Shown piece after piece: positions 9,108-58,662 of a stretch of 64,000 nucleotides of DNA. Where the stretch lies: NCBI GenBank assembly GCA_903813345.2, contig CAIIXF020000001.1:23436001-23500000 (forward strand). The letters run 5' to 3'. This DNA comes from Owenia fusiformis. Taxonomy: Eukaryota. Position 1 is the stretch's first letter. Every line of letters starts with the position of its first letter. The notes under the pieces are model-generated. The model saw nothing but the letters and a program-made list of their open reading frames with translations, was not told where the DNA came from and made no database searches. A program made the translations under genes and the position numbers.

Positions 9108-9179
9108 GGGGATGTAGCTCAGCGGTAGAGCGCGTGCTTTGCATGTACGAGGCCCCGGGTTCGAACCCCGGCATCTCCA
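9108..9179 (+). tRNA. trnA-TGC: tRNA-Ala (anticodon TGC)
   Basis: GGGGATGTAGCTCAGCGGTAGAGCGCGTGCTTTGCATGTACGAGGCCCCGGGTTCGAACCCCGGCATCTCCA folds as a full cloverleaf with A and B boxes and the G3:U70 Ala identity pair. T-runs (Pol III terminator) lie just downstream. Confidence 0.97.
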
Positions 9180-9398
9180 GAAGCTTTCTTTTCTTTATTT
9201 TTCATTTGTTTTTTCTTTTGTTTTTAAGATTCACATGTTTTGTGACTGTAATGGTTTATTGTTTCTTTGTAACTTTTTAGCAATGAAATCAATATATTAA
9301 TCCTGAAAACGATTTAACGACCTGTAGAATACAACGTTATTACTTTACGAGTATCTGTAGAAATATCAATAATGTGACGGTTGATATAAAGAAGTTAT

Positions 9399-9503
9399 TT
9401 ACAAGACGGGATTCGATATCATATTCGACATGTAAATAACGACCTTAATTTTTACAAGATGGGATTCGATATCATATTCGACATGTGAATAACGACCTTA
9501 ATT
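9399..9503. repeat. Short tandem duplication (2 x ~53 bp)
   Basis: ttacaaga.gggattcgatatcatattcgacatgt.aataacgaccttaattt occurs twice. Confidence 0.8.
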
Positions 9504-9738
9504 TATCCCGGCTTATACCATGGTCAAGAGCAATAGCTAGTACCTAGTTATAAAGTCCTCTGTTGAACAAGAGAAAAATATGTTTAACTCTTAGAAACAT
9601 TTAAGTTACATATTATCCCGCCCTAACGTGCATTGAGAATTTAAGAAAAAGAAAAACATAAAACTTAAAAAAAATTGAAAAATCAAAATTATTTTTCAAC
9701 TAAATAATTAACTTTTTGGAAAAAAATGTAAAATTTTC

Positions 9739-10446
9739 AAAGGTGCATGTGCAGTATGGGAAGTGATTTTAGACGGTCATATCTTTTACCTTGAGCACTT
9801 TCTGGCCACAAATGCAGTGGTTTCTATTAAGACTATATGTTTTCTTTCAAGTGAAGTCACCATACTACTAAAATATCAATCCAACTATCTGAAAAATTAT
9901 GGTTTAGGACCCCACCTTGGCTCTTTTTTAAAATTGTTTGGCTTATTTTCTAAAAAGAGGATCTTGTTTTTCTCAATTTAAACATACTGAACGTTTCTGA
10001 AAAGGGGATGGGTACTGATTACTGAAATGCGTGAAAGTTAAAAACCACATATCCCATGTAAATTTCACATAGAGAAAAGTAGTGCTATCTATTGTTTTCA
10101 GCATGATTTTGGTCATCAAAAATTGATATCTTCACTAGATCACTTTCAATACCATTCTACTTTTGAAGAAGTTTTAGACCCCTTGTTGAATAATCTTTTC
10201 ATGCGATAAAAATTAGAAAAAGAAGATCCTCTTTTGAGTTAATAGGTTCAACATTTTGATAAATTGTTGACATGTGGTCCGAATTCATAATTCTTTGAAT
10301 TGTTCGATTAATATTTTTATCATTGTGGGCATTTCACTTGAAAAAACATACTGCCTTAATAAAAACCATTGCATTTATGCTCAGAAAGTACTCATGGTGA
10401 AAGTATGACTGTCTAAAATTACTTGTCATACTGCAAATGGACCTTT
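9739..10446. mobile_element. Old MITE with long degenerate inverted arms (AAAGG...CCTTT ends, Kolobok-like)
   Basis: aaaggtgcatgtgcagtatgggaagtgattttagacggtcata... pairs with ...tatgactgtctaaaattacttgtcatactgcaaatggaccttt, and pairing continues inward for ~250 bp. The superfamily is an inference. Confidence 0.7.
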
Positions 10447-10961
10447 ACCCGTGATTATATCAATATCATCCCTGATATCATCTCTCTTATCCTTATATCA
10501 TCTCTGATATCATCCCTGTCCCAAGTATGTGGTATTATACTACCAATATCATAAGTGATAATTATATTTTATCATATTACTTGCATTTTAATAAGTCAAG
10601 GGGATAGGATTGTAGCCAGTCTGATAAAAACAATAAACTTAACCAAGTACAGTACAATGGGCATTAAAACTTTATTCATCATAATACAGAAAAATATGTG
10701 TATAAAAATAAAAATGTAAGACTAAGAGTATAAATACTGAAGCTTCGTTACAACATGGACGTACGGAGAAAGCAATATCCATGATACTTGAAAAAATCCA
10801 TTATATTATTAAAAGAATTCTGCCGACGCCGCTTTTACAAAAACATAAATATAAACATAAACAAAATTACATGTAGTTAATACATTACAATATAAATAAT
10901 AAAATAATTATCAACAGTGCAAAATATTTTAATGATTCCGATTCCATGAATTCAGATTTGC

Positions 10962-12441
10962 TTACATATTGAAGAAAATCTCAGGTGAATTGTGGGCTAT
11001 GGTCACTATAACAACCGTGTTACATTTGATATGTTCGGGTAATTTGTGATAAGTCTTTATTATTGTGTTTGCCACATTTGTCGAAGTAGCCCAGACGTGT
11101 AAAATTTGTTTCGACCAATTCTCCAAAGAATTTTGTGTGGCTTGGATCACACCTGTAACAAAACAATGAAAACTTTCAGATACCTCATAAAATAAGTACA
11201 TTTTAATAATTTTAAGGCATCGATTAGTTACATCATGGACTTTTATAGTTGCATGTTTTTATGTATTTACCTAAAAGATTACGGTATTAATCTAAGATTA
11301 ATGAGTTACAATCTATCAAGATCTATCAATCAAAGCAAAACATCATGTCACCCCACCTGTTAATTTCTTGACCAACAATTTCTCGGCGTCCTCATCTGTG
11401 TACTCCCCTCTGTATTTCATTGCTCTGGTGACCGATACACCTAACCTCGTTGAGAACATCTCACACACATAATCTGTGATAGACCCACCCTCAGGGAAGT
11501 ATGACACCTCCATCTCAGTCTGAAATTCAGTAAATTAGTTATAATACAATTATTCATTATTAGTGGATTGGATTAAGACTTGATTTACATACATTACATG
11601 CCGAAGACAAGTGACCGAGAAATATTATAATCAAAGCCTTTCTACAACGCACATGTACATGTACTCTCTCATATTCTCATTAATCATGGAAAGATGGTCA
11701 TTAAAAATTGTTATCTAATTTGGCAAAAGCAATTTTGTTGAAAAAAAACATTATCAAAATTTTAGTTTGAAATGCTTGGAAAGCCAAATAAACAATGTTG
11801 ATTTTAAATGATTCTCAGAGGTGGACCAATGCAACGTACCCTACAGCTCTCCTTCTGTCGCTTCGCTCGCACTGATATAAACCTAAAAAATCACACCCGC
11901 TTGAAATTTGCTGGCTCAGCCCCTGATGCCTGATCACATCTTTTAATCTTACCTTCAATAGTTTTGCACCGAAGCATCTTTTGAGCACCTCGTATGACAT
12001 AACTTCAGATATAACAGAACTTCCTCCAGCATTTGGGACATCCTGCAACTTCTGAGCATGTTCTGATAATTTCATGTTCCTTACTCTGCGAAAAGGATCA
12101 TATTCGTATTGTATCAGTCCTCCTTCTTTGTTATCATTGATACATTTGATTAATTTGAAATATTCATTTAATCTCACTGAAAAGTTTTCACCAATGTAAA
12201 TATTTACACTTTTAGTTTTTTGCCCAGTTTTGGGGGTGAATGTCTCCAATTTGCTTTTGAGGCAACTTTGGGGACTTGTTGCAGTTTTTGAGAACGCATT
12301 TTTCTTGTTTTTGAGGCTGGAATTTAGGGGAGATGTAATGGTCACTTTCCCCGGAATGTTCCTTTTGTGTTGTCGTGAACCCCGACCCCCGGGACCCCGA
12401 CCGCCGATGGTGTTTTCGATGTGTCGTTTTCGTTGCTGCAT
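10962..12441 (-). CDS. AAC4-like protein (AAC-rich mRNA clone AAC4 family), 3 coding exons, ~280 aa
   Basis: Exons 12441-11953, 11519-11357 and 11152-10962 (GT-AG, phases 0 and 1) give PNAGGSSVISEVMSYEVL...LLK-TEMEVSYFPEGGSITDYVC...LGVSVTRAMKY...LLVKKLTG-VIQATQNS..WSKQILHVW. I recognise these motifs from AAC4-like proteins. The start codon is tentative. Confidence 0.85.
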
Positions 12442-13893
12442 TGTTCATTGTTTTCCGTGTCATTATATGTGCCATTATAGCTGTTGTCTTTGCCTGTGTG
12501 GTTCAGTGGTAGATTCGCCTGTTTGGTTCAGTGGTAGATTTATAATTCAAGGCGTGATCGTATGGGTTCTTTTCATAATTATTCGTGTCTGATGAAATTA
12601 CTACGACACCAAGCTTTATAGTAAAAATTTCATCAATGAATCCAAATATAGCAAATGAGTAATGATTGGCCAATCAAAAGAGAAGAGAGTGACATCACTT
12701 TCCTTTTATGGATTTTAGGTAGCGATACAATTACGTATTTCGTCGTTATATTATTTACGAAGATTATCTTTTGGCATAATTATGAGTTCGTTTATTATTC
12801 TTACTATTTATTTGCATTATACTTTATATAAATATAACTTCAAGTATCAAGTATATTGTAGGCCTAAAGTACGAAAACATCTTATCCCAATTTAGAAACT
12901 AGGTCATTGAAAGATGAACAATTTTCATCTCTCCTTTCAAGATTTTAATCGATCAAGGATATTACAATGTACTTCATAAGATAAAGGACACCACTGTACA
13001 CATTCTGGTGAGTTATACGTTTTATACATTCCAATTTAATCCCTTTCTTAGGTGTACCGCTGCATTCGAGTAATTTTGGAACCATATTTTCACTTCCTCT
13101 TTCAACTTCAACTTGAACTTCCAAGAAATAATCAAAATCGAAAATGAAAACAAATATACAAGTATAGGCCGCCATTTATCTATCTGATTTTTGGGCTAAT
13201 GTAACATGCAAGATCTGATACAGTCACAAATAGGCTTCATAGATGTTAGGTGCATTCATGCACCCTCTGGGTCTCTGAGGATCTTGTTGGCCTTACGACA
13301 ATCCAACGCATTAGAGGCGGTGTTCACCGTCTACATAGATGTCGGAAAGATTATTTTGTAGGACTGATACACAGTGAGCACCATCAATCTTCATTATTCA
13401 TTATGTTATGTTAGATATTAGATAGATTATGCTGACTATGGACTGATAGCTACAGTTGGGAACATAAAGAATTACTAGACTAGGGCAAAGAGGTGTAACG
13501 TCGACTGGTGGGATTAAGTCGACATAAATGACGGGGTAACTTCGACACTTACTTATTAGAAGTAGAATTTCCGTTTCCGCCATTTGTTTGATTTCTGGAA
13601 AAATAAAATCTTGCGAGATCTCGATCCATGCGATAAAAAAACATGGCTTCCCCCAAGACTGTAACACCTCTAGTAACAAATATGCAAATTAATTTACTCC
13701 ATTGGTCATTTTGAATGGCACATCCTATGTAAACAAATAATTTTCCAATCCCAAATTTTAACATATGTGGGCTATAGTCTGAATATTTTCATTTCAAATT
13801 TCAAAAAGATTTCAGACTAGAGGTCTGTGATATTCCCAGGAATACTCATTTTCTGTTCAAAAACATTTACAATACAATATGTAAAACACAGAA

Positions 13894-14303
13894 TCACGCG
13901 GTACTAACTTTGACCGTTAATTTGAATTTTTGACCTACCAGATGCTTGAAAATCAAGGATTGCGAGTCTCATACTGGACCGTTTTTCTTCAAACTTATAC
14001 GATTAAAAGCAAAACTAAATTGCCTTTCTGTCGGTGCATTACTTTATTGTAAAGAGTCCCTCGTTCTAGCAGCGTTTTGGTCCCCAGCTGTTAGAAGGCC
14101 TTCTTACAGCTGGGGACCAAAATGCCACTGGAAGTAGGGACTCTGTTTAAGAGAATAATGTGCCATCAGAAAGGGATTTTTGAAATGCTTTGAATGGAAC
14201 AAGTTTGAAGAAAAACGTTGCAGAATGAGACTCGTAATCCTTGATTTTCAAACATCCGGTAGGTCAAAAATTCAAATTAACAGTCGAAGTTAGGACCGCG
14301 TGA
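13894..14303. mobile_element. 410-bp foldback (near-fully palindromic) element
   Basis: tcacgcggtactaactttgaccgttaatttgaatttttgacctacc... mirrors ...ggtaggtcaaaaattcaaattaacagtcgaagttaggaccgcgtga. The symmetry axis is the palindrome agaaggccttct at 14093-14104. Confidence 0.85.
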
Positions 14304-16191
14304 GTATATATGGTCAATAAAAGTCGCAATTCTTGATAAAAAGAAGTGGAAATCCCTGAAGATATCATCACCTAACTTCTAATTCAAGTCATGTTATCAC
14401 AGTAAATGGGTAGCTCGCATATTTCTGTTATACAAATATTAATTTGTAAAAAGTAAACATTTTATAAGCTGAGAAGGAATTTCCCGCTTTGACATGAAAT
14501 CATCAAAATTTGTGAAGGTAGACAAGGAAAAAAAGTATGACATTTTCTACCTGTCCTTAAAATAAAAAACTCATGTGATCCATTGCTTTCAGCTTAATTT
14601 TGGTCAACCATAATGGATATTCTTAAAACCCCTGAAGGAATCACTTATTCCTAAAACAATGCTATTTGTTAACTGTGTGTCAAAATGCAACATTTTGATG
14701 CAACAAAAATTGAAAAAGCAGGGATGGAAGGGGTTGAAAATCAGGACAACATTTCAGAAAAAACATGTGGGTGGGCTGTTTGCATCTTTCCTGTCTCAAA
14801 GTCGAAATTATTTTATGATCTCTATGAGTAGTTTTCCTGGAGGTAATTTATTGGCCTAACATATGCACCTGTTTAAATCCTCAGAAAATAGCCAAAATCC
14901 ATATGATTGCATGATATCTGTTGCGACACTTTCCGTCCTCTTTTCATGAAATAAAAAGCAAAATTGTTGAAAATTGAAATCGTGAATTCACTTAAAGTTT
15001 AACGCATAATCACATAAATATTCCAGAGGATCCAGAAACTTTGTTGTTGAAATTTCTTGTGAAGCTTTAGAATATTAAAAAAATTAATTCACATATTCAT
15101 CATGTTCCTTCAATGCAAATGATACATACAGTACACATACTGAATAAAACAGGTTTTTGAGGGTTACAAATAGATAAAGGTTATATGCGCTTAACATCCA
15201 AAGTCTACTTTATGCATATACATATATTGGAACCATTTTTATTATATGAGCTCTGGACACTTCATTGGAATCATGTTAGTCTATGTTAAATGAGTATTTG
15301 ATTTATATATTTATAACCTAATTAGTTATAAACCAAAGTTGAAGTTGAAAGATAACATTCTTAATATTGAGTATAGAGAACTGATGATCAGTTTAATTAT
15401 TGATAAAGACCATATATCTTAGAAGGGTGTTTACAGGCCATCCCCCAGATGCTATAAGACCAAATATATAACATGGTCGTTATCAAACAATTTTGCCTGT
15501 CCTTGACATTTGTCCCTTCATCTATAACCAAAAGTCTTCCGGACAAATGAAAACTGCCATTTTTTAACCTAATGCACACTCGGATCCATTTTATAGGGAG
15601 GAGTCCACGCAGATAATTTATATCATTTGTCCAATTGAGAACCAATTTTAAACCTTTTTTGAGAATTCATCAAAATATCATGTTTGTTAGAATATACAGA
15701 CTTAACATCAGAGCCCATTGGTCGTACCATATAAAAGGTGAAGGGGTGCTATTAGAAACACAAATGATGGTTGCTTGGAAAACAAAGGAATATCATGAAT
15801 CGTTCTACTGTAATATTCTATCGCAAATTAAATTGTTGAAGGATCTCTACAATGTCCTTGGTTTGGGTACTGTATAACATGAAATATTGCTGTGGATATA
15901 AAGTTGCCGATTGCCGAATGTAAAACAGAAACGGCAACATAAAATTCAGAAATATAATTAAGTAATTGAAGATCAATCTTTGTGGGCGATAATATGGTAG
16001 TTGTCTAATGTGTGTCAACTTACTTTAATAGGGTAATTTTCTAACAAGTATCAACTTACTATACTTTAACAAAAATCATAAATAAAATACAATAAAATCG
16101 AAGCTTTATTCCCCAGCATGAAATTACAATAAAAAGTCATGTTAAAAAGTTAAAATGTCAGAATCTAATTGTATCCAAGTGCTTTGGAAAT

Positions 16192-16251
16192 CCCAGTATT
16201 AAAAGTTTTTAATCCCGATATTAAAAGTTTTTAATCCCGATATTAAAAGTT
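16192..16251. repeat. 22-bp minisatellite (~2.7 copies)
   Basis: ccc(ag/ga)tattaaaagtttttaat repeated. Confidence 0.8.
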
Positions 16252-17644
16252 AAAATCACTCAAATGTCACTCATAATGTCAGGATGTCAGGTTTTCTGAG
16301 TCAGTAAAATGAAGGTGATTAAAATTCAGTTGTAAATCAAAATTATATTAGAGGTGTCAGCTTAGCAATATTTTATTTGGCTTTGCATTTAGGGGTGTCA
16401 GGTCGGCAAACTTTTATTCGGCAATAACAATTTTAATCCAATTCGGAAAATAAAGCACCCGGATTTAATACATGTTATACAGTATTTTATAGAAATACCT
16501 ATTTAATCCAATGATCATCATCAGGATCAGTTCTATTGCAGCGTGATGACTTTTGTGTCTGTTATATTATTGGGTGGAGAATCATTCTGGTTTACAACAC
16601 CCCCCCCCCCTCTTATCTGTCATTTGCGAGAATGGTTTAGCCCACTTTGGAAAGACCAAGACAAAAGGGGGCACTGTTATTGCGCTTGGTGGAGAATATG
16701 TATCTGCTATTGTTAGAATAGGACCATATGCTAAACAGGTCTCTGTGTGGAACATTTATGGAATTTGGATGTTTTGGCATTGGTTCATGTTACATGCCAG
16801 CATAATTCAATTAAACACCTCCCAGTGAATCTAATTACAGAACAGAATTAAGCTTGCATACATTTATATGGGTCTATCTGAGACGTAAACTGTAATGTGC
16901 AATGATAAACTTTCTGGAAAGCTGAACGGGAAACATCTGACAATTAATAAATATTTATACCTCCATGTAGATACAGATTACATATTGGTCGTTAAAAAGG
17001 CTCTTATTCAGATAAACACCACTGAATCAATAATGCTAACACCTTGGAATGTGAACACTTGAACAGTTTTATTCAGATCTAGCATTGTTCACTTTAAGGT
17101 ATGTTCTCTTTTAGACGTATGATGTCATTTTTTTTCATTTCATTGATTCACTTAAGAATACAGTTCAGAATAAAATCCTAAAGTCATAGATTGTTAACAC
17201 ATCAATGTGATTGCTCTCTTATTACTTTACTTGAATTTATGATCCATCATCACCAGTTGTGTTTTTCAGTGTTACATTGTATGTATGCTTGCTTTCTTAA
17301 AATATTGCCATTTGTGCTTCGTGGAAGGCCTCAAGACTCATTCTAGAAAACAATACGATCATCATGCAATGTTATTTATACCAGCTTGTAAAGGGTGTTG
17401 CCTGAGTATCTGATACCATGATTGTTAATATGATCAGGTTTTCATAATCATTGAAAATTGTCGAGCTAAATGTTACATTCCATGACATGAAGAAGGAGGA
17501 CGAGGGAGCAGGGGCGGATCTGGGAACCAACAAGAGGGGGGGCAGATCCTCCAGTGGGGAGGGGCTGATTGCAGTCCCTGGATATACTGCTTTAGTATAT
17601 TACAATCAATTACAAAGGGTTTCATTAGAATTTATGACAAAAGG

Positions 17645-17855
17645 CAGGCCCGTAGCCGGGGGGGGGGGGGGGGGGTCGATGGGTTCGAGCGAACCCCCCC
17701 TGGCCAAAAAATCTTTCAAAATCATGCAGTTTTCACCATTCTGAGCACTTTTTAAGTGATCTTGGCCATTTTTGAACCAGAATTGTCACAAGTGAACTCC
17801 CCCTGGAATTTTTCAAAAAGTGAACCCCCCTTGGCAAATCCTGGCTACGGGCCTG
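17645..17855. mobile_element. hAT-like MITE (TIR caggcccgtagcc)
   Basis: caggcccgtagcc...ggctacgggcctg. Related partial copies at ~39819-40010, ~40044-40080, ~42505-42645 and ~47340-47485. Confidence 0.8.
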
Positions 17856-18193
17856 ACAGGAAATGTGAATTTGAAAACAAGAGGCGAAATAATTAGAAAT
17901 AACTTTGAAACAGTTGCTATGGATCCCTCAAAACAGCAGGATAAACAACTGAAGAAAGTTTCCAGTTGTCTGAGGTCTGTTGCTAACGAATCTCTTACAC
18001 TATTGTACCATTATAAAACTAGTTGAGGGAGGCGGGTCAGAACCCAAAATATGTAAAATCTTATTAAAAGTTTTGCCATTTATCGTTTTTATCAGAAGAA
18101 TTATTGTAGTCTGTTCAGTTTTAAGTAAAATTTTCACACCTGGTTGTAAAACCTGCTGTTTGCTTTAATGTCATGTTTTTACGTGTTTCAGGA

Positions 18194-21100
18194 ATGGAGT
18201 CAGGGTTCCAACAGCGCAGGCTGCTTTCCCTTGATGAGGCCTACCAAGCAACTGCAGACTTCCTGCCTGGCAGTGAAGCAGGGATGTTATTTGTTGCCAT
18301 ATCAACCATTTGTGCTTCCATGGTGATTGTGATAGCGTTAGCTCTGTGCGTGTGTGGGAAGAAAGAAGGGTAAGTGAGAGCCAGAATCAGAAGTACAGTA
18401 TACAATTGTTGACCTCTCCAGAGGTCAACCGGCAAAATTGTATACCGAGACTGTAAACTGAGAAACTACTGTTGACAGAGACCGAAGGTCGAGGTCAACA
18501 GTAGTTTCAAGGTTTACAGTCGAGGTATACGATTTTGACGGTTGACCGAATGGAGAGGTCTACAATTGTTTTGTTAGTCCGAAGAAACTAGTAATACACA
18601 ATCATATAGACGGCAATCATCAATCGGCATGGCTTCATTTCATAATCTTTTCTCCGAACCACGTCAGCAATATTTTTTTAGAAATTCTGAAGATAGTGGT
18701 AGCTAAACTCTCTATATTCGGCACATCACGGTAGAGTCATTAGTAAATTAATGTTGATTTTACGTTTCTATTTGCATTTTTGCCATTCTTGTCGTCTAGT
18801 AAACTCAAAAAATCACTTTCATCAACGTTTACAATATTATGACGTCATGGAACTTTTTTCAAAAGTAGCGGTCAACAGTATCTAGTAGCGGTCAACAGTG
18901 CATATTGTTGACCGCTAATCAACCAATCAGAATCGAGTATTTCAGTTGAGGTACTAACAATATAGGTTGTGACAAAATGGCAAGATTATTTTGGGAATCA
19001 AAATATTTATAATTGTGAAGAATATATTCATTGGTAGGACTTGCCAATATATTCTTCACAATCACAAATATTTTGAAATGTTGCAAATGATAAAACATGG
19101 ATTTCCACATATAGAAAATGAAAAATCAAGTGTTAAATTCTCCAGTAATGTTTTGTGTACATGTTGCCTTTCTAATCTAAATGCACAGCTGATACATTTT
19201 GTTATATAAATAAAATATTAAAAATGGAGCTAACAGTAATGTCACACTTTCACAGTTTCTCATTGTAAAAAAGGAATCAGTTCATAAATGTTAAATTAAA
19301 TAAAGGTCATGAATGCCAAAGAATTAAATTATGAATGTCAGTTTAATCAAATGATGAATATCAGTTAAATAAAATGATGTAAATTGAAATGATGAATGTC
19401 AATTAAATGAAATGATGTATTATTTTTTCAGAGATAAAAATCTAGAGTTGAAGACTGTGACCCCAAGAGTTGATAGGAGGTCATCAAGAGATAATGTGAG
19501 TTCAAATAATATGAATACAAATAATGTGAGTTCAAATAGTTTTTCATGACAATTATAAATCAACCAGAGGCATAAAATCAAAGACATGAACACAAACATA
19601 TACAAGCAAGCATATATTATAAACTCTGTGTCAAGAAAACAGTCTCAAATACCCAAAAGACAAGCATACATACAAATATACTCAGTGTCAAGTATGCAGA
19701 CACAAACTTGTATACTTACAGGGAAGCAAAGAGACACAATGTACCCTAAGGCAAGCACACAGACACATATACCCAAAATCAAGCACACTGACAAATATAC
19801 TCAGTGTCAAGTATGCAGACACAAACTTGTATACTTACAGGGAAGCAAAGAGACACAATGTACCCTAAGGCAAGCACACAGACACATATACCCAAAATCA
19901 AGCACACTGACAAATATACTCAGTGTCAAGTATGCAGACACAAACTTGTATACTTACAGGGAAGCAAAGAGACACAATGTACCCAAAATCAAGCACACTG
20001 ACAAATATACTCAGTTTCAAGCATTCAGACATAAATATGTATACTTACAGGGAAGCAATGAGGCACAATCTACCCAAAGGCAAGCATGCAGACACATAGA
20101 CACGAGGCAAACACCTAGAAAACTTGAATTTTACAATCATGTATTTGTTTTATAGGATATTGTGGACTCAGCAAATCTCCAAATTGAAGTAGAGGGGGCT
20201 AAAAGACAGAGTAATGGATCTGCAACACATGAACATATCAGAGAAAATGTTTCATCAAACAGCAATGATAAACACAGGTATATAATCAAATATAAGTTAA
20301 ATGTTAATGCCTAATGTTTTGTCTTTTGTATTCAGTTTGCCTGAAATTAGAATTACTATACATGTACTTTTTGTACAGTAAACCAGTAGTATGTCTATGT
20401 AGTGATGATTGATGGTGTTTTCAGCACTGTATTCTACATTACTTTACCAATTCTGATCAAAATATCCTAATTCTCCATAACTTACCAATTTTCACTTGCT
20501 GGTATCAATGTGTTATGATTTGATATCATCTTCTATGTATTTTCCAGGGCTGAGTCAACCAAGTCAGCCACTATTGCTCGCAGACTTCCCGAGATCCCTG
20601 GAGTCCATACACCCCTCAGTGGCTCAGATGATGCCGTTTTTGAGGGTAGAGAAGAGAACTATTACAGTATACCAAAAGACTATCCTCAAAATATTGGCAA
20701 ACAGGCAGCTGAGAGGTCCAGTGCTATTCCTGCAGGTGTTGATGATGATAAGGATGATAGCATTATTGATCCATATAATACAGTGAAAGATGACACTAGT
20801 GAGACAGCTGGTGACTCTGCAAGTGGGGCTGTTGGAGGAGTAGACCCAAAATACACTAGAGTCAAAGGAGAGCCCCCCTATGCCAAAGTGAAAGGAGAGC
20901 CTCCATATTCGAAAGTGAAGGGTGAACCTCCATACTCCAAGATTAAAACAGATACTTCCAAGAATGACACTGGTGAAGAGGACCCCGACTATGCCACAAC
21001 AGAAGATGACTATGCTGCTATTACTCCACCCCCTGTACCCAACAGAGGATATCTTGACTCTAGCCCCCTACAACAACCCCCCAGATCCACGAGCCCAAAC

Positions 21101-24100
21101 TTACCATCTAGAAATCTCAACCCCCACATTCCAGCAGCTAATCTACCCCTCAGTTCCTCTGCTCCTCAGGGAACAAGTTCAGTGACGGACCAGGAGAGGG
21201 AGCCACCATACAATCAAGTAACAGTACGTGAGTCGTTGCAGAGTATCCGTGAGCGTCAACAGGAACAGCTCAGGGAGGCCAACTCACGTACTCTTAGTAA
21301 TGTGGATGAAGATTATGCCTCTGTAGATGCTGACAAAGTAAAGGTCTGTTCATTTATATCGCACCCTTGGGTGCTATAATATATTGTGCTATATTGTTCA
21401 AATCTGACTTCAGATTTGAGAATGACTTCTCAGGATCAAAAAACTCCAGATGTTGACCAATTTTTTTTCAAAATCAAGTTCTCAGAAATTCAAATCCGAC
21501 TTAAGATTGAACTCATTGTATTTGCATTGTATTGAGAAACCAGGAGCAACTAGGTGGTGACATTTTGTCATGTTAATGCCTTGTTATTTTCTATGGTATG
21601 GGAAATACAATTGGCAAATTGATGATATTTCAAGCATACTCCTTTATTTGAGGACACAGATTTTTGTATCCTGACAATCTACATGTACATTTCCATCAAT
21701 ATCATAAGTATTTCCTCGTAGGTTATGTAAATAAAAATTCAAATATAAAAAGGCTTCAACAAGTATGGTTGCCAAACTTGTGGAGGGGAGTGTATATTTG
21801 ATCATATGTTTATAAATGTGTATATTTGATAGATGCATTAGCTTCAGAAAAGGCAATCCTAGGTATAAAAGAGTATAAAATGAAGCGACACATTTTTAGA
21901 TGAATAACATAACATGAATGTCCAATATAATATTACGACCCCTTGGATTAGTGTACCACTCCCAATTTACCTTTTTGGGGACCTAAATTCTATTACATTA
22001 TTGTTTAACAATATGCCATACATTGGTGTTGTTGCATCATTGCTCAAATCTAGAGGAGTGTTTTTGCATCTTCGGTTTGGTGTTGTTGCATCAATAGTGA
22101 GGAACAAAAACCGTGAATTAATTGTTTCTTGATGATGCTACATGTATACCAATGGCAGTTATTTAAAACATAGATCGTGCACTAACTCTACGTGTATGGT
22201 TATTGAGAAACTCGTCTTAGAAATGGGTTAAAATTGGGAAAACAAAATATCTTACGAAAATCTATCACCGGAAGTCTGGCCATCTTGATGCAACAACACA
22301 GTGTTGTTGCATCACGATACTCCCCAGTGAATACTGAGTTGATTGATGCCTGTCAGTAGTCAGGTTTGTAAGGAAGATTTGTTTTATTGAATTATATCAG
22401 AAGTTGTTTGAAAATGAAAGTAAAAAGTAAGTATTGAGTCAACTGGTATAGTACTAGTATTATGAGGAAGTTGGAGGATTAAGTTGGGCATTAAGTTTAA
22501 GGAAGTGAAACCCATTGTATTACCTATATACACATTGTTTATGTACTCTGTCTAGTCTCTTTATCTCTCAAAATAATACATACAATCTAACTTTCAATAT
22601 ACTGTACATGTTGATTCCTGGGCTGATTCATTTTTATCACACAGATTTTAATCACATAGATTTCCAGAAATCAAATACTACGTGAGAAAAATTTTGCGCT
22701 TTATTGTAAGTCTTTAAAGTATGATTGGAGAGTACTTCCCCATGTCATAAAATGAGGGAAAGTTTGTAAGATTAGACATTTATGTTTGAAATTTTGGAGT
22801 CTGAAGAGGAATACATGTACGTTGATTTTAACTTGTGCATAATTACAAGTAGTTTTGTGTATGGTGTCAATTGGAGCTAGGGACACATAGTCAACCTCTA
22901 TAATTTTCCAAATACTGATGTTTTGAACAACTGAGATCACCCTTTATGTCCTCCATTCAAAGTTATGGATGTTAGAACACCCTGTTACATTTTTTCCATT
23001 TCAGAGTGAAGACAGTATCCCATTTGTCACACCCCCTCTATCAGATTTAAACAGAACTAGCCAGTACAGTGCCAGCGAGGTGTATGCTGAAATATCCCCT
23101 AACTCAGGTATGATAAGTTTATATATGTTAACTACATGTACAAACATAAGTCAGCTTCCCAAGTTTGGTTTTCTGAATGTTCCATATCATATCTCATGTT
23201 CATGCATCTTTCAATTGTTGCTTTTATTGTTTTTATGAAGTTTCAGCTCAGTAGTGATGTTTATATATATATGTTCGCTGCAATTATTTACCTTTTATGT
23301 GCTACCCTGTATTCAAATCTATTTTCTTTTTGACCCAATATGCCTATTATCAGAAATACAGAGTGATCATGAAATTTAAGGAATTTTTGATCACCATGTT
23401 CATACAGTAATCAGGATTACTGTGAACTGCATAAATGCATGATTTGAAAATGACAGTAGTTAAAAATTATTGCGAGGATGGGAATTGCATGGGGTTTGAA
23501 TTGAATTAAACTGAAGAATACACCAAAGGACACTTGGCATATTTGTTCCACTAGGAATGGTGTGTGGAATGGTGTGTAGTGTATAGCTGGTGCAGCACAC
23601 TGGCCAACAAATGCTCAATACGTGTTTGAGTATTCTTAGGTTGGTTATGAAATCACAAAAACAGTTTTTTTCTACTCACAATCTTTTTTATTTGAAAGAA
23701 TGTTTCGAATCCTAACTTGATCCTGATTTCAGTTCAGTGTTTTAAAACAGTAAATAAAGGGTCTGATCCGAAATGTTCTTTGATTTCGAATGATAAAGGT
23801 TGTGAATAGAAGAAAACTGTTTTTGTGATTTTTCAAGTTGAATAAACATGGTTTAATAGGCATATTTTGGATATTTCCCTATTATAGAACAATTTTAGAA
23901 GCTTCTGAAATAGGGCTTGCTGTTTTTGTGTTTATTGTTATGTTTACTTTTTGTGTTGTTATTGTCATGGTTACCATGTGAAAATGTTGTTGTTGCTAGG
24001 TGAGAACTCCAACCGTAGCTCGTTGTATGCAGGTATCCAGGACTCTGCTGTTAGCTCATCGGCCAATGAGAAACCTGCTAGTAGAAGTAAAGGTAGTTGT

Positions 24101-27100
24101 AGTTTGTTCTTTAGCCTTATGATCTTTTTACACTTCTTTAGCCCCATGGAAGTATGTATTACATGATTTAAACCATATATATCTTGTGTCGAGACTGCAT
24201 GAGGAGTGCAGCCCAAATTCAAAGTCTATGATACAAGACATGAGTGCATTGAGTCATCCACAATTCATCAAATGGTTTTGTATTGTATCACTAAAAAGAA
24301 TGATTTTTGCAAGGTTTGACCTCAAAGAAATGTGTATCATGTGCATCAATTATTTTAAAGAAAACAACATTTCTTGCCTTACAGAAATGTGTACAGTGAT
24401 CTCCACAAGATTTTTTCTCAAGTGGTTGCAAAATTCTCATTTTCACAATTCAAACCAAATTGGTCAAAATATGCCCATTTTTCATGATTTCTCTCATTTT
24501 CAAATTTTCATTTTGCAAATGGATTTTCAGGTGGGCGCAAGCCTATTTACAAAATCTGAGGTGGGTGCTGCTCCCACTATCTTTAATGCTGGGGAAATCA
24601 CTGGTGTATCATTATCCCAACAAATGAAATTTACAAAAAAAATCTAATAAATCAAGAAAATCTGTTTATGTAGAAGAATACTTTATCAAAAGACTGGAGC
24701 TTTCCTTCTGTTATGATTCACCAAAAAAATGTTGATTCATATGAGAATTTTAGTGCCAATAAAGAACACTGTTGAGAACCCTACATTTTTACATTGAATG
24801 TTTGACAAAAATGTAGATACAACAAATATTATGATAATCAATATTCAATATAGTTGCGGAAAATAGAGGTCAGTTAAAGGGTGGAAACTTTTTATGATTT
24901 TATGCATTTACCTTTAATATTTATTTAAAATTTAAATCCTCATAATTTCAATATTCCATATCTACACATGTCCTGCAAAACTATAATTGGACAAGGCTGG
25001 TGAGCTTCAGAAAATGTTCTAAGATCCAGTTTTTGGAGGAGGAAAGAAGATAACAGAAGCTTCTTTAAAGTGATTTGGAGGTTTTTCTACTCCTAAACCA
25101 AGCTGTTCTCCGACTCCATACTTTCTATGATACATGTCACAGTCCAGTGGTCCAAATCCATTTTCATCATATTTTAGATAAGTCTTGGTTGTGAAGGTTA
25201 TCACATCTGGCTCACTGCTAAACCCACATTCTTGATCAGTTTCCATTAGATATGCTCCCATGAAGACAATAGCTCCTTCAGGGATGGTCACGTTTAAACC
25301 ACCTGATAATAGATATATTATATGAGGGGTATATGTTATGGGGGGTTTTAGATATGGATCCAAGGTAAGGTATCATATTTCCTAAGGGAAACTAATCCAT
25401 TGGAGCTTTTGCAAAGACTCTACAAGTGGACATAAAAGATTTTGGCATATATTTCATCAGAAAACTGGAAAGTGGGAAATATCCCCATGTTATTTCTTCA
25501 GTAGACATTAGCACAGCCACAAAGGTTAACATCGTGTAAGAAGCTTGTGTTTGTATTGCAATACAAACTAAACAAACTTGACCAAACCCATGAACAATGT
25601 AGCTTACAAAGTGTAAAAAAAATACTAGAAGCTCCATACCTGTGGCCTTATATGTGTATGGTACCTTTGGAATTATGAGAAAAGCCCCATCATCGACTTC
25701 TGTATTCCTGTAATATTTAACCCTGGAAGGAGTTGTTTCTGTTATAACTCTAAATGATATATCAGGTTTGTATGGGCTAAAGATGAAATCACCCAAGTCC
25801 ACCTCATCTCCATTGGTCAACTGGTCATCTGTTACTGCATTAGCATCAATGCCATATTTCTCCTCTGCCCACATGATGAATTCTCTCCCTTTGAAAAACA
25901 ATGCTTATCTACATATTACTTCATTTCACTGGTTTACTATAAAATATGTATTGATAGGGTTCAAACAGCAGATAGCTGATTATCTTAGAAATACTTACAT
26001 ATGTCATATATACTTACCAATTAATCATCCCTGTTTTTGTCCAGCTTGACATTAATCTGGACTGGGAAAACAGGACTGTTCGTGAGATGTCAATGAAATA
26101 ATATTAATTGAATATTAATCATCTCTTAATGATTATGAAATGTTTGATTTTTGATTTTATTGATGCACGCCACATCCTCACAATAACAATATTTAGATGT
26201 ACCATCAATATTGAAAATTTTGAGCATCTTCACTAGCATCTACACTGAATCATTAGCTGAATATACTAGTATATAGTACTACCCAGACAGGCGGCTTCTG
26301 GAAATTTTCTTTTCCTTTACAAAGAGAAGTGTCACGGAGTGCAAGAGTTGTCTACTGTCGAGGAGCAATTTTTCATAAAAACACAAAAAATTGTATGTTA
26401 CATTGTAACAAAGAAAATTAACTACTTTATGCATATTGGTATATCATTTGCTTCTGGTCGAAGTCCAATAATGCTAGGTGTAAAAGCTATTGAAAACGGC
26501 ACCAGATGTTATCATACTCAACAATGTGCCGTTTCTTTTTAACTTTTGAATAGCACAATACAGTATTGTGACATGATAATATTTACATCTGGTTTAAGTA
26601 TAACTTTGAAGATATTAATTCGATCTATAGGTATTGGGTCTTATACATTTTTTTCATAAAATAAATGTTTAATTTTTTGTCCGCCATGGAGGAGCAGTTT
26701 CAAATGTGAAAGACCTTAATAATATATCTATTGCAATGTCAATTTGGGAAAGGGGTTCGAAACATTTTCATGTTTTTGGGTAAAACTGGGAAATTATAAA
26801 TGTCCCAAATGATTTTTTGTGTTTCAAAAGTCTTTCTACTAGATCCTTTTCTATTTTGATGACCAAAACCCAACATTCAGTCTATAAAACTTGAAATTGG
26901 TTTTGAAAGACACAACTTGTTTACTCATTTAACCCAAAGGTTAATTGCTTAAAGATACAAAATTCTTCACCACAGTTCTTACCAAACTTGACTGCCGATG
27001 ACCCAATATCATGCCAAAAGTCCTGCCATGTTTTTGGCCATGGAGCTTTCGTGAATGAAAGCCTCACCCCATCAGCAACTATTGTAAATGTTCTTTCATA

Positions 27101-28916
27101 CACAGTGAAGTTCGTTGGTGTTCTATTTTTTGGTCCTTTTCTTTTTGTACATGATCCTGACATCTTCTTTGATGCATCTGTGAAAATTACTACTGCATTG
27201 AATGTTAAAATTCCTAAGATTACAATATGTTTTAAACTTTTCATTTTGAATTTTCGGTATGTATGCATATAGTTTATGAGTAGATTGCTTTTATGAATAG
27301 ACATTAATTAGAAAGCAATAAATTATTTGCAATATTGTACAGAGGAACCCTAATAAAACAGAACAGCTCAAAATTGTAACGAATTCTTTTATAAATGTGT
27401 AATTGATCTAGTAAATTAAAGTAACTTAATGACATTATGCTCATTATCTTGTCATGGAGAATCAAATTATTTGTATACTTTACAGATCTGCATTGTGCAT
27501 TTTAATTACCTAAAAATTGGACGTATCCTTAGATTTCTATACCCTCGAAAGTATAATGCTGATAACATAGATTATATTACAAGTAATTACAATTTTAGGT
27601 GATTCCATTTTTATGTCACCACAATAAGTGGTGACATATTGTTATAGTCGTAGCCTCCAACTTTTTTGTGGATGGTGTCCAGTAGTTGGTGTTTGGCATC
27701 TGTAACAAATGGAAGGTGGTAACATTTTGCATGTTAATGCCTTGTTTTGGTTACCCTGTATGTTATCATAGATAAGGACAAGGTGAAATTATTGATGTTC
27801 GCCTACTAATTTATTTAATTATTACTAGTAAACAAAACAAAAAACAAACAAAAAACTGCAATGAGTGCAATAAAGAAGTTAATAGCCCGGAACATAATAA
27901 AAATTAATAAAATAGTGATCACTGGTCAGTATCTTGAGCCAAATGTCCACAGTAAAGTGGTTTAATGCAATGGTATAATAAAATCAACACTTACCATTCG
28001 CTATTTTGAAAGAGAAGAAAATGGCCCTCATCTTCATCAGATACTGACTCATGATGATGTTCACTGCACAAAGCAATACATGACCAAATCATAAACACAT
28101 GTTCACTGCACAAAGCAATATATGACCAAATCATAAACACACTATTTAATGTTCTCTTGACACAAAAAAACAATATTTTACATGCATACAATTTATTTTT
28201 CAGATGACACAGATATTGACCCTAGATATGATGTGATCAGTCGTCCAAAGAGTAGTGTGGCATCCAGCAGCTTCCCAAGTCCGCAGCTTGATCCATCAGG
28301 GTCCCCTCTGTACTCAGAAATAGACAAATCTAAGAAATCAAGAAAGACAATACATATCGATGACCACGCCAGGTTGAGCCAAGGTGCCAGCAGTAACATG
28401 CCTTTATATTCTGTTGTAAACAAACCGAGGAAAAGTCGCTTGGCTCCTGGGTATGATAACCATATTCCTCAAGCTAGAGCATCACCACCAGATTCTATGT
28501 CAAAAACAGAACATAATAATGGAGGGGTTGATATGACCTCTGTAGCTAAACGACACCCGGGACTAGAAGGTATTGATGTCCCGGGCTATCAGACTGTGTC
28601 AGATGTAGAGCGAGTAAGGATGCGTGGAACTGGAGATCACGTAGATTCTGAGACAGGTGATCCAGGATATGACTGTGTTCGACCTCTTAGTGATATGTCC
28701 CAGTCAAGCACTGGAAGCAGTAATAGATTGTCCCAGAATGAGATGGTACATATAGACTCTCACCATGTCCCAGACACGTTCTGGCAGAAATCTGAACATT
28801 TGTATCAGGAGATACCTGCTGACTCTAGTCGTAAACCATCCAAACATAAACATAAGGAAAAGAAGAAAGGAAGTTGGAGGAGCAGTAGGAGAAAGGATAA
28901 AGGTGCATCTCATTAG
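18194..28916 (+). CDS. PAG1/Cbp-like type III transmembrane adaptor protein, 7 coding exons, ~686-688 aa
   Basis: Exons 18194-18369, 19432-19495, 20156-20277, 20548-21343 (or 21337), 23005-23107, 24000-24092 and 28204-28916 join in frame (phases 2,0,2,0,1,1). The protein has a short ectodomain, one TM (MLFVAISTICASMVIVIALAL), juxtamembrane CVCG+KK, the SH3-ligand RRLPEIP and ~17 YxxI/V motifs including LYSVVNKP. Confidence 0.85.
18401..18960. mobile_element. Hairpin-type non-autonomous element (Crypton-like, inferred)
   Basis: A ~170-bp stem-loop at 18401-18570 centres on gaccgaaggtc, followed by gcggtcaacagtgcatattgttgaccgc and aaccaatcagaatcgagtatttc. The architecture matches 56192-56952. 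Confidence 0.6.
19672..20100. repeat. 119-bp intronic tandem repeat (~3.6 copies)
   Basis: acaaatatactcagtgtcaagtatgcagacacaaacttg... starts at 19672, 19791, 19910 and (after a 28-bp deletion) 20001. Confidence 0.9.
21396..21585 (+). mobile_element. 3' fragment of the Helentron-like family
   Basis: Core-repeat remnant plus the 3' end gagcaactaggtggtgacattttgtcatgttaatgccttgtt. Confidence 0.65.
23650..23831. repeat. Imperfect hairpin, possibly a Penelope-like terminal remnant
   Basis: aaatcacaaaaacagtttttttctactcacaatc pairs with ggttgtgaatagaagaaaactgtttttgtgattt. Internal tttcgaatcc and gatccgaaa motifs are present. Confidence 0.45.
25019..27244 (-). CDS. Uncharacterised secreted protein, 3 exons, ~264 aa, nested antisense in the last intron of the PAG-like gene
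   Basis: Exons 27244-26983 (G|GTAAGA), 25888-25640 (G|GTATGG) and 25302-25019 are joined by two phase-1 introns. They give MKSLKHIVILGILTFNAVVIFTDA (signal peptide)...SAVKFG-REFIMWAEEKYGID...YKATG-GLNVTIPEGA...DCDMYHRKYGVG...KTGS*. Confidence 0.8.
27611..27746 (+). mobile_element. Minimal Helentron-like copy lacking core repeats
   Basis: The 5' hairpin ttatgtcaccac-aataa-gtggtgacata is joined almost directly to the 3' end aggtggtaacattttgcatgttaatgccttgtt. Confidence 0.65.
28057..28140. repeat. 42-bp tandem duplication
   Basis: atgttcactgcacaaagcaata(c/t)atgaccaaatcataaacac occurs twice. Confidence 0.85.
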
Positions 28917-53900: not shown

Positions 53901-56900
53901 GATAACTCTGAAAGTGGGCGTGACCAGCTTCATTTTGACACCAAATTCAAGATGTTTCAAATCAAAATGGCCTCGCAAGACGAGGTTGAAATATCAGTAA
54001 TTTGATACTGATATGGTCTACGATAGATCAAAATTGACTGCCCCGCGTCACATGTCACGTGAGCCTATATTTGTTGAAAAATGAAAGAGATAGTGACACT
54101 TTTTAATCTTAAGTTTATACCAATATTACAAACACATATCTATTTTTTTCATTATATATTTATTTCTTCATAATACATACATTTGTTTTATACTACATTG
54201 ATTTATTTTTGCAAAACCTTTGCTATTAGATCTTTAACTGAATTGAGATAGACATGATCTTTACATGATGAATATATAGCAATGCGTTGTGATACAACAA
54301 ACACTCAACAAATATCTCTGCTAAGGTATCGAAATGACGTCAGTCAAAAAATAAACATTTTTCCAAGAATTTTGACAATTTTACGCTGACGTCATTATGA
54401 CGACTTGGTATAGTGTCTTGACGATGTAATCGTTGTCACTAATAAATAATTTGATACGAAAAATTAAAGATTTTCAGCCTAACCCTTAAAGCTTCTGATC
54501 AAATATCACTCTTTTTAGATATTCTTTTTGAAGAAAGACGTAAATATATATCAGAGACAAACACGTTCGCATTCTTGAGTGGAGTATATCTTTTTGGTAA
54601 CTTTTCCCATATCCCTGACTTTTTTACAATATTAGATTATTCATTTCTTGCGAAAATGTTTTTGAAATGTACGAGTTATAATAAAAGTTGTAGCAAAATG
54701 AAAATTTTGGACGTTTTCTCCCACTTTCACTTTAGTTGCCCAAGTGCCTGCGATGCAGCACCATGAGAAAGAACCTCGTTGAGAGTGAAGTTTGGATGTC
54801 TTCTGGTGGAACAAGTTCTACGCTTCATTACCACGCAGACCATGACATTCATTGTATATTAGATGGGCGCAAAGATTTCATCCTCATCCATCCAAAATAT
54901 AAATCTGATATTACTTTTGTTGAGAAGGTATTGGTCGTCTTTTCCCTTATTAGTGATTGTAGTTTAATCATAGTCAAATTCGTAATCATATTTCAAACAC
55001 AGACTTCTCCTTCGAAAGACTACGGGACATACTTGGGGTGGCTACCTACTTTGGCAACGTACATGTATGTCTTCGTATATAAACCAACTACCTAACGACA
55101 ACTTAGCAATAACACGAATAGTTCCACGCTTTTTACAATTTCTGATTTGTTACTACTTGCGGATTCACGACAGTTTCAGACTACCATGATATCCAGGAGA
55201 AAGTAGTAATTTACGAAGTCAATCGAAAATGGTAGTCTCCCGGGGGAAGTCTCAAATATATGTTCGTATATCAAATATATATTCGTATATCTATATAAAG
55301 GTATTATTATGATCAGTTTTAACTCTATTTTATACTGCAGAGTCCACATTCAGGCTCTGGTCACTCAACGGTAGACGTGGATATGGTAAACGCATTCAAA
55401 GACTCAAAACTTGCTGCGACTCCATGGCACTACACCACACTTCTTGCTGGGGATTGCATCTTCATTCCAGCAGGTTAATCTACGAAAACATCTTCTCCAT
55501 CCTTTTTCCTTCATCTCATATATATGCTGAGAAGCAATAAAGAGTACTTGCTGTATTATGTATTATTTTAGTATAAATAAACTTTCTCCATCATCATAAT
55601 TTTCACGCTGGTTTTTTTGTAATGAAATGAGGCCATGAAAATTCATCATATTTTTATTTCTCTTTTACAGATTACCTACATCAAGTACGCTCTTATGGGC
55701 GAAGCATTTCCTATACAGTTCTGTGGTCCCCCACACCCAAGGTTGACATCAAGGACTGTAACGAAGAAGTCGAAAATAAATTCACTTTGCTTACCGATGC
55801 TTCATTTATGTGGACTTTCGCCGATGGTGACAAGGTATTGTAATATTTTGCAGATTTTATCCGAACAACCGCACTTTATGTGAAGTAGAATAAAATATGT
55901 GCGTTCACAAAATGATGGAAACTGTGGATGCTCGTATGATTCACTTGATCTGGAATATGGAACTGGTATCCATATTCACCCGGGGTCTCCAGCATAGTAA
56001 CAAAGATTATTCCATAATAACATGTTTTCCCTGGGAAAATAACAGGGAATAAAAGTGTTATTTGAAAAATCCCGTATCAGATCCCGTATCAGCCAAAATC
56101 CCGTATCAGATCCCGTATTGGATCCCGTATCAGCAAAAATCCCGTATCAGATCCCGTATCAGAAAAATTGAAAAAAAAATATTATGAAATAAATAGGTTA
56201 TTGATGGTCGTGATGGAATATGGATTTATTCCTTGAGAAAATATGATATTGGCCTCAGAAAATATCATATTGACACTCGGGCTATCGCCCTCGGTCAATA
56301 TGATATTTTCCTTGGCCAATATCATATTTTCCCTCGGAATAAAATCCATATTCCATCCCTCCCATTGAATAACCTCTATTTATTCCATGATGGTGAAATT
56401 CCCTGCAATCTGATTGGTCCACGTGACTTAAATATATTCTGTATTTACACGCACTTTCCTGTGTCAATGACGTCAGCGTTGGGATACGGTCCAGTATCCC
56501 AACGCCCCAGATTTCCATCCAGGATATGACTGTTACTGAAAAAAATCAATGGCGATTACTTTGCACCAACGCATGCTTATCTTTGAATTTTGCTATAAAT
56601 ATCTGATTCAAATATCAGAAACGTATACTGTGATCACCAGAATCAATAATTTTAAGAGGAAAAAACGCAAACAAAAAGCAAACAACAAGGACATAAAGAT
56701 TTTGAAGGAATATCGATGTAAAATACCTCTGAGGTGAGAAGGTTGATCTGTTTCTCCGGCCCCAAGCCAACGGACTTGATTTAGGCGAATTTTATATGGG
56801 TAATCATGGAATAAAAACGTTATTCAATGATTTCTTGTGAAATACAGAAAATATTCTTCCCTTGAACGTCTGTATTTCACTCTGCTAGCGCATCGTGAAA

Positions 56901-57617: not shown

Positions 57618-58662
57618 AGCCCAACAAATACCAAGATGGAACCTCTATAGATATATGTTTGGACACATATTTGAACTAGATCTAAATTAGACTTATTCCT
57701 AGAGGCAGTGATCTGGAATATGAAACCGTTAACCGTTGACGGATATTTCATACGTTATTTGCCCGTTTTTGTACCTAGATTAGTGATGTACCATTTCCGG
57801 GGTACCATTATTGTCAATTCATCTGTATGAACCAGTCGTCAGCAGTTGTATTCGTTATCGTCATTTATTATAATTGTTGTACAGAACAGTTTTCTTCATC
57901 TTTAGCCATCCTTTGTAAGGATACTCCATTTAGGCTTTAGCCAGTAGTGCATGTGGGAAGGGAATCCTTTAATATGTAATATTGTCTAAAATCTCAAAAA
58001 TGTCATTATAGGATGCATATTCTCTCCTATTCGATAACCCTAGGATGAAGAAAAGAACGTTTCCATGAAATCAAACAAGTATGACTATCCCTTGGATCTC
58101 ACAAGCTTTAGATAAAGATAAACTCTGATAAATCAAAATGCGAAAATATATTAATAAATGGAAGGTGGCATTTGTTTCCGATCTTATCATATATTTATAT
58201 TTTGTATTGAGTTGAAGCTGGTGGGAATTTAATCGTTGAGATATTTGTAGATGTGTTTATTTTTGAGATTTCCTCTTTAATTCTTCATGCTTGATTTCCT
58301 TAATCTTTCATTTTGTGAGGGATATTTGTTTTTGAACAATCGGACTTATAGTTATTTAGAATTTATTCTTTAATACTTCTGATTTTACGTTTTAGTCATC
58401 CGAATTTGTCATGCGAACTATGTGATTTAGGAATAAATTATGTATAAGCAAGGGAATCACTCTTGGAGTGTACCTGTATTCACATGTACATGTGGAATTT
58501 TGATTCAGTAAACCTGCCAGATGGCTTTTTCCATCAGGATGCCATAGAAAATTGCTCAGAGTATAAAATAACAGTGAACTCAGAAAAGTAGAACATAAAA
58601 CTCTACAATGAGGATTCGACCTGATATATTTGTTAGAAGTAAGATTAATACATGAATTTGGG

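Follow-up and report, generated by a model that had tools for sequence, protein, structure and literature searches.

A conserved family of annelid and mollusc proteins with the layout of the palmitoylated transmembrane adaptors

Csk, conserved throughout animals, depends on a phosphotyrosine scaffold for its access to the membrane (PMC3492796), and the locus described here raises the question of whether annelids and molluscs have such a scaffold of the type known from vertebrates. The locus occupies positions 18194-28916 (+) of a 64,000-nucleotide stretch of DNA from the annelid Owenia fusiformis (contig CAIIXF020000001.1, positions 23,436,001 to 23,500,000), here called the window, and a sequence-only reading had proposed that it encodes a raft transmembrane adaptor resembling PAG1/Cbp. 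We find that the gene belongs to a real, conserved and unnamed lophotrochozoan family which combines the design of a known vertebrate class with features that this class lacks. In annelids and molluscs alike the protein is likely to be a type III adaptor, intrinsically disordered and crossing the membrane once, and would work like PAG/Cbp and LIME. In the literature consulted for comparison the palmitoylated adaptors are all mammalian, and PMC5909926 names dASPP and paxillin, not a PAG counterpart, as Csk partners in Drosophila. We found no description of an invertebrate PAG-type adaptor in the literature searched, which had most subscription journals outside its scope and included PMC5909926, PMC7550700, PMC4030455 and PMC5253658.

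The gene is real and transcribed. Its seven coding exons, all with AG/GT ends (GT-AG introns), lie in A+T-rich animal DNA and join into a single open frame of 688 amino acids. Coding exon 1 (18192..18369) carries the ATG at 18194, a 28-residue ectodomain, the transmembrane segment and a CVC motif. It is followed by exon 2 (19432..19495, 64 nt), exon 3 (20156..20277, 122 nt), exon 4 (20548..21343, 796 nt), which bears most of the conserved motifs, exon 5 (23005..23107), with YAEI at 23083-23094, and exon 6 (24000..24092, 93 nt), which contains YAGI and is skippable in frame. The last coding exon (28204..28916) encodes YSVVNKP (28407-28427), YQTV, DPGYDCV, HLYQEI, a basic C-terminus and the stop codon. 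The translation is identical to the NCBI entry 'unnamed protein product [Owenia fusiformis]' (P0001), an annotation that lacks independence from the window, having been made on a genome of this species. The RNA evidence consists of stranded reads from three raw-read runs of low depth; none of the 15 splice joints listed for them, in a table dominated by repeats, belongs to this gene. The reads cover exons 3, 4 and 7 as a forward-strand transcript, with depths in the three runs of 2, 5 and 12 at position 20587 and 5, 1 and 7 at 28688, and give at most one read at each of ten listed positions in intron 3. Exon 4 matches the worm's own genome at one place, a single copy. Two further open frames lie in the introns. 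One, of 198 codons, is spurious and results from a tandem repeat at 19649-20086 (119-bp period, 3 copies, 95% matches); the other, an acidic frame of 170 codons at 25392-25904 on the opposite (-) strand within intron 6, has no Pfam match and almost no RNA and is probably the remnant of a mobile element.

The predicted protein is organized around one membrane segment, as had been proposed. Kyte-Doolittle analysis finds only one hydrophobic segment (best 19-residue window 2.67, with nothing above 0.25 past residue 60), and AlphaFold, supplied with a 23-sequence alignment, places a transmembrane helix at residues 29-54 (18278..18355). The preceding ectodomain, estimated earlier at about 30 residues and lacking a signal peptide, has 28 and indeed lacks one. 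The helix ends in CVC (residues 52-54; 18347-18355), a predicted palmitoylation site. Here the sequence-only reading is upheld for the cysteines but much less so for the basic patch that it placed beside them, which is weak, with 3 K and 3 D/E among the ten residues following CVC, and amounts to KK in a neutral stretch. The model has a mean predicted local distance difference test (pLDDT) score of 48 and no globular domain, its three helices being residues 2-21, the transmembrane helix and residues 347-373 in the tail.

The tail carries RRLPEIP at residues 132-138 (20579..20599), a class I SH3-type ligand; tandem 9-residue tyrosine repeats reading YTRV, YAKV, YSKV and YSKI (20852..20944, with a 27-bp period in the DNA); a second proline-rich motif, PPVPNRGY (21029..21052), of the form PxxPxRxY; and a most conserved block (21200..21325) comprising EPPY342, the TxRES helix (347-373; pLDDT 81-92 in its core blocks) and Y377ASV, the best candidate for a Csk site. 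The RRLPEIP ligand and the roughly 17 YxxI/V motifs reported earlier are thus both present: 17 of the 24 tyrosines stand in YxxI/V, whereas shuffling the tail 10,000 times gives 2.3 such sites on average and never more than 8. One YxN site of Grb2 type is present in the worm protein. YxxPhi sorting signals share the YxxI/V pattern, and the sites might accordingly be endocytic or lysosomal signals of a trafficking protein. However, the +3 residue is I or V in 17/17 sites and never L, and neither the number of sites, the SH3 ligand nor the conserved flanks are required for sorting, which leaves a sorting role very improbable. Three features go beyond those seen previously, namely the variable phosphotyrosine repeat array, the conserved tail helix and a luminal RxLL motif.

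The protein has relatives in molluscs. Single-sequence searches returned one Tegillarca protein and one Logan protein, then two further bivalve-type proteins, and a profile of six sequences gave 48 matches. All 17 of these that are named come from bivalves or gastropods, and all 17 are labeled uncharacterised, hypothetical or with a low-complexity look-alike name. This search scored 8000 word-sharing candidates and missed the worm protein itself. An N-terminal transmembrane segment is present in 22 of the 48 matches; the remaining 26, being incomplete or single exons, were excluded from motif counts. Our full-length set of 25 comprises the worm protein, 21 of those 22 (one near-duplicate Mytilus protein was dropped) and three cluster members; some of the 25 are close kin, so that statistics on the set do not describe 25 independent lineages. 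When the profile is built from mollusc sequences only, the worm protein matches it in three ordered pieces with a score of 72.5 bits; the highest scores from 1000 residue shuffles and 1000 8-mer block shuffles are 5.7 and 23.9.

Collinear in 25/25 members are CxC, RxLPxxP, PYxK[VI]K, PxxPxRxY, YxxxTxRES, YA[ST]V, DPxY[ED]xV and HxY[EQ][ED][IV]. CxC and RxLPxxP had been specified beforehand by the sequence-only reading; the other six patterns were taken from the alignment, which partly guarantees their full representation but does not account for their presence in the annelid. RxLPxxP lies 67-98 residues downstream of the Cys pair in every member, PYxK[VI]K occurs in 1-18 copies per member, and YxxI/V accounts for 17-34 sites per protein and 55-81% of tyrosines. 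YDH motifs are present in 24/24 relatives and absent from the worm protein. Conservation is tightest over EPPY...TxRES...YA[ST]V, coinciding with the only confident cytoplasmic helix, and the isoelectric point of six members lies between 4.7 and 5.7. A search of representatives with exon 4 gave 10 matches, three of them in the family (P0001, P0004, P0005); the other seven were dropped as repeat-driven, judged by their sequences and names. Metagenome scans gave first nothing and then one contig bearing a clam-like last exon. On this evidence the family is one of conserved, uncharacterised annelid-mollusc (lophotrochozoan) proteins. A Haliotis member searched against the worm genome missed the adaptor gene and returned only a tandem repeat (L007-L010, G000:C3 near 34010200), in which ~27 copies of a 6-residue PYNTIK-like unit form a 194-codon frame that matches the Haliotis repeat by composition.

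How the protein begins bears on what kind of membrane protein it is. A splice acceptor lies 2 bases upstream of ATG 18194 in the transmembrane exon, and upstream exons therefore exist. A second NCBI isoform of 719 amino acids (P0013) gains 31 residues from two such exons, at 12655-12718 and 12981-13007 (+), the latter of 27 nt and joined to 18192, and it too is without a signal peptide. The first of these exons has its own ATG, flanked by C at -3 and A at +4 and followed closely by an ATTGG/CCAAT pair in a head-to-head promoter region ~200 bases from a neighboring gene, and because its ATG adjoins this pair the exon may be untranslated. ATG 18194 has, after splicing, G at both -3 and +4; from the two start contexts and the ATTGG/CCAAT pair beside the upstream ATG we infer that 18194 is the main start. 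The head-to-head neighbor (10962-12444, -), which starts that same distance from the first annotated exon of the adaptor, contains exon-like frames at 11815-12444 and 11343-11534, has no Pfam match and shows weak RNA of matching strand.

Since an acceptor precedes ATG 18194 and the reads leave the 5' end unresolved, the protein could be receptor-like and of type I, with a signal peptide and an ectodomain that have been missed and that processing at RxLL would release. RRLL at residues 8-11 (18215..18226) fits the site-1 protease consensus, given as RX(L,V,I)Z in bioRxiv 2023.03.28.534447, and a Solemya model has a 170-residue N-terminal part with a signal-like segment ahead of its RRLL. RxLL is found 35-44 residues N-terminal of the Cys pair in 5/25 members (Owenia, Solemya, two Haliotis and Babylonia), and longer ectodomains are confined to these five; that it is cleaved is a guess. 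Yet the first Cys of CxC is at residue 29-52 in 24/25 full-length members, including RefSeq models of Haliotis, Mytilus, Ostrea, Mya and Dreissena; a signal peptide is also missing from the longer Owenia isoform, and 22 donor-like sites checked in 9200-18150 yielded no convincing in-frame signal-peptide exon. A receptor of this kind is thus improbable.

At the level of sequence, the family has the layout of a palmitoylated transmembrane adaptor (pTRAP), which is an architectural class: a short ectodomain (24/25), no signal peptide, a single transmembrane segment, CxC (25/25), and a tail that is rich in tyrosine motifs and has no folded or catalytic domain. The features whose loss the sequence-only reading had set beforehand as grounds for its refutation are all in place, with the transmembrane exon in the annotated proteins, the Cys pair and RxLPxxP in every member and YxxI/V at the proportions given above. 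The adaptor part of the PAG1/Cbp-like assignment therefore agrees with the published layout of PAG. Whether the proteins belong with PAG1 or LIME1 as a family is another matter, and these sequences do not show it.

Several results weigh against such membership. None of the 23 aligned members matches the Pfam families PAG (PF15347), LIME1 (PF15332) or LAT, with PAG and LIME1 followed to E<=10; PAG, LIME1 and LAT were likewise absent from Pfam scans of single exons and of P0001-P0003, and a PDB sequence search with the worm protein, the family profile and two peptides gave 0 matches. The Cys pair is CxC in 25/25 and CxxC in 0/25, YS[SV]VNK is missing from the relatives, and the basic patch is weak or absent throughout, with 1-4 K/R in the ten residues after CxC. 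The sole hint of relationship comes from a language-model search, the ESM Atlas, in which the nearest named cluster (LIME1 95%, PAG 36%) scores 0.91 with 181 shared features for the worm protein and 0.88 for the Tegillarca protein, and SCIMP clusters score 0.84. Unnamed arthropod-rich clusters score higher, at 0.93-0.94, and as many as 4-10% of shuffled proteins reach >=0.9, and 0.88 is a lead only; a common layout by itself can produce such similarity in features. An Atlas structure search with the Tegillarca model gave structural TM scores <0.3, which are uninformative for a disordered chain. Vertebrate proteins are found neither among the 17 named of the 48 profile matches nor in the search of 1.84 billion proteins with exon 4. 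The lack of arthropod or deuterostome matches counts for little, because the profile search was confined to its 8000 candidates and missed even the worm protein.

These results bear directly on ancestry, where vertebrate PAG1 and LIME1 may have in this family a true protostome co-orthologue that has gone unrecognised, its sequence eroded by the fast evolution of disordered tails. LIME1/PAG is the nearest named Atlas cluster for both queries, the gene is single copy in the worm genome with no better candidate there, and the unnamed arthropod-rich clusters hint at a wider family. The order of parts, with the transmembrane segment and Cys pair followed ~70-100 residues on by RxxPxxP, then by a second proline stretch and tyrosine motifs, parallels the proline-rich stretches at 131-138 and 257-263 of PAG. 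Set against this are the 0/23 Pfam matches, the CxC in place of CxxC, the want of vertebrate proteins in both searches and the ease with which short linear motifs converge. We judge co-orthology plausible, at a little below even chances. The intron phases of PAG1 and LIME1 start 2, 0, 1, with a large fourth exon; those of the worm gene are 2, 0, 2, 0, 1, 1.

One locus, L001 (G000:C10), was considered as a PAG orthologue. It reaches PF15347 at E 0.84, or as a single exon at E 7e-4 (19.2 bits against a cut-off of 27), with a match that covers the transmembrane segment and Cys only (profile positions 16-55 of 428) and a frame that stops ~50 residues past the membrane. L001, an exon from another kind of gene, stands among similar transmembrane and ectodomain-like exons, has no Tyr-rich frame >=75 aa within 30 kb downstream and was rejected as improbable. 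L001, L003 and L004 (-) form, at G000:C10 16653000-16672100, a cluster of similar transmembrane exons with luminal CxC, juxtamembrane Cys and short tails, interspersed with signal-peptide, collagen-like and ectodomain-like exons.

We turn to the proteins that might read the tail. Two relevant SH2 exons are present in the worm genome. One is from Csk (best PDB match CSK, E 3.4e-27), whose SH2 domain is divided among exons, and the other has its best match in Fyn-related kinase (FRK). LYSVVNKP had been singled out for its likeness to the Csk site of PAG, which is of YSSV type (PMC3492796). The motif is indeed present, with YSVVNKP at residues 520-526, but it is not the one that the family conserves: YS[SV]VNK occurs in 0/24 relatives, Y[AS][VST]VNK anywhere in 10/24, and a looser motif in the interval of Y520 in 5/24. 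Better candidate Csk sites are Y377, whose YA[ST]V is present in 25/25, and the four Y[TAS][KR][VI] repeats, Y520 being the weaker choice. The pattern Y[TAS][KRQN][MIVR], which is the usual Csk SH2 preference with S added, occurs 4 times in the worm protein against 0.23 expected. Less favorably, the strict form of the preference gives 2 sites in the worm protein and any site at all in 17/25 members, and the +1 residue of the repeats across the family, mostly N (156/251, with S in 58 and A in 25), fits that preference less well. Overall, the tail is very probably a phosphotyrosine docking scaffold, and the balance tips slightly towards Csk as a main partner.

The same sites admit of an activating role, in which the protein would be a multivalent platform like LAT or the substrate region of p130Cas, its phosphotyrosines gathering Src, Nck, SHP2 and other SH2 proteins below a receptor, with Csk incidental. 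The 17-34 YxxI/V sites and 1-18 PYxK[VI]K copies exceed the need of one Csk site. In addition, the repeats mostly read YNKV and the acidic C-terminal DPxY[ED]xV and HxY[EQ][ED][IV] (25/25) resemble the YEEI/V Src SH2 motif (PMC3492796), both of which also speak against a pure Csk role. On the other side stands the YA[ST]V found in every member, and since YxN, YxxM and ITAM (immunoreceptor tyrosine-based activation motif) spacing are each in the minority (8/25, 6/25 and 8/25), LAT-type outputs are not conserved. We consider an activating platform unlikely.

From the presence of the features set beforehand, the match of the layout to PAG and the Csk SH2 exon in the genome we infer a PAG-type way of working. 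The parts of the family resemble those of PAG and LIME in similar order and the genome has Csk and FRK-like SH2 exons, and on these grounds we propose the following scheme. The transmembrane segment would insert without a signal peptide, and S-acylation of CxC would favor ordered membrane domains. A Src-family kinase could then dock through its SH3 domain on RxLPxxP and phosphorylate the YxxV/I sites of the tail. SH2 proteins would bind these, with Csk likeliest at the Y[TAS][KR][VI] repeats and at the YA[ST]V that follows the conserved helix, and Src-family or Nck-type SH2 domains at the acidic C-terminal YE[ED][IV]-type sites. Csk recruited in this way would phosphorylate the tail of the kinase and so damp Src signaling. 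A broader proposal, which we offer tentatively and think more doubtful than not, is that the family is an invertebrate Csk anchor sharing an ancestor with PAG1/LIME1. A Src-Csk scaffold would then predate vertebrate lymphocytes and reach back to the bilaterian ancestor; lophotrochozoans would tune it through the 1-18 PYxK[VI]K array, much as EPIYA number does in CagA, and older lineages would keep the ectodomain-trimming RxLL of site-1-protease type. Whether by descent or convergence, the family would date the origin of the palmitoylated-adaptor design. For annelids and for the farmed molluscs (oysters, mussels, scallops and abalone) it offers a conserved and concrete candidate, with few residues to test.

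Other features of the window are a tRNA-Ala(TGC) gene at 9108-9179 (+); an exon at 54736-55092 (+) that matches Cupin_8 (JmjC-like) above cut-off, at E 5e-7; a 369-codon single frame at 58612-59718 (+) with several hydrophobic segments and weak, below-cut-off matches to TMEM100 (E 4e-4) and PIRT (E 3e-3); and a frame at 63252-63674 (-) with a weak actin-like match (Actin_micro, E 0.005). Elsewhere in the genome, a long frame in L003 (1-585, +; G000:C10 near 16662200) has a strong match to pectate lyase (PF00544, E 1.3e-28) and apparently carries on from a frame that is open where L004 ends. Such a frame is unusual for an animal genome, and horizontal transfer is a possible source.

Among known systems, LAT, NTAL/LAB and SCIMP share the membrane layout, and one family member reaches PF15050 at E 4.9. 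These proteins are much shorter, however, and the Grb2-type YxN is not conserved in the worm family (8/25). The EPIYA-repeat proteins, H. pylori CagA and Pragmin, carry Csk-binding Tyr motifs in variable number, and in CagA activity tracks the number of these motifs (PMC4030455). They are unrelated to the worm family and we claim no homology; one worm repeat reads EPPYAKV, whereas the family repeat is mostly DPYNKV. According to PMC2194117, LAT, PAG, NTAL/LAB and LIME carry CxxC, on which LIME is palmitoylated, and the RxxPxxP of mouse LIME (RQLPRAPP) is an SH3 motif of type I. LIME1 (PF15332) thus resembles the family in its short ectodomain, transmembrane segment, Cys pair and RxxPxxP, for which molluscs have RQLPAPP and RELPAPP. 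It differs in its CxxC, its 5 Tyr and its 242-aa tail, and PF15332 has no match in the 23 members or in the worm genome.

PAG1/Cbp (PF15347) differs from the family in having CSSC where the family has CxC, in a basic patch that is weak in the family, in 9 YxxV/L/I sites against 17-34 YxxI/V, in a tail of 397 residues against 630-1050, and in the tandem phosphotyrosine repeats of the family. PAG also has a PDZ-binding C-terminal end, a type of C-terminus found in 0/25 family members. In PMC2213442, PAG is a type III protein without signal sequence that has a 16-aa ectodomain, CSSC followed by a basic hexapeptide, an acidic character, proline-rich stretches at 131-138 and 257-263 and 9 of its 10 Tyr in YxxV/L/I, and it recruits Csk via Y317 once this is phosphorylated by a Src-family kinase. 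The family is alike in lacking a signal peptide and in its tiny ectodomain, one transmembrane segment, juxtamembrane Cys pair, two proline-rich stretches and acidic YxxV/I-rich tail. The likeness extends to spacing, with a proline-rich SH3 ligand ~90 residues past the Cys pair and a second one later in PAG, and RxLPxxP at 67-98 residues followed by PxxPxRxY in 25/25 members of the family.

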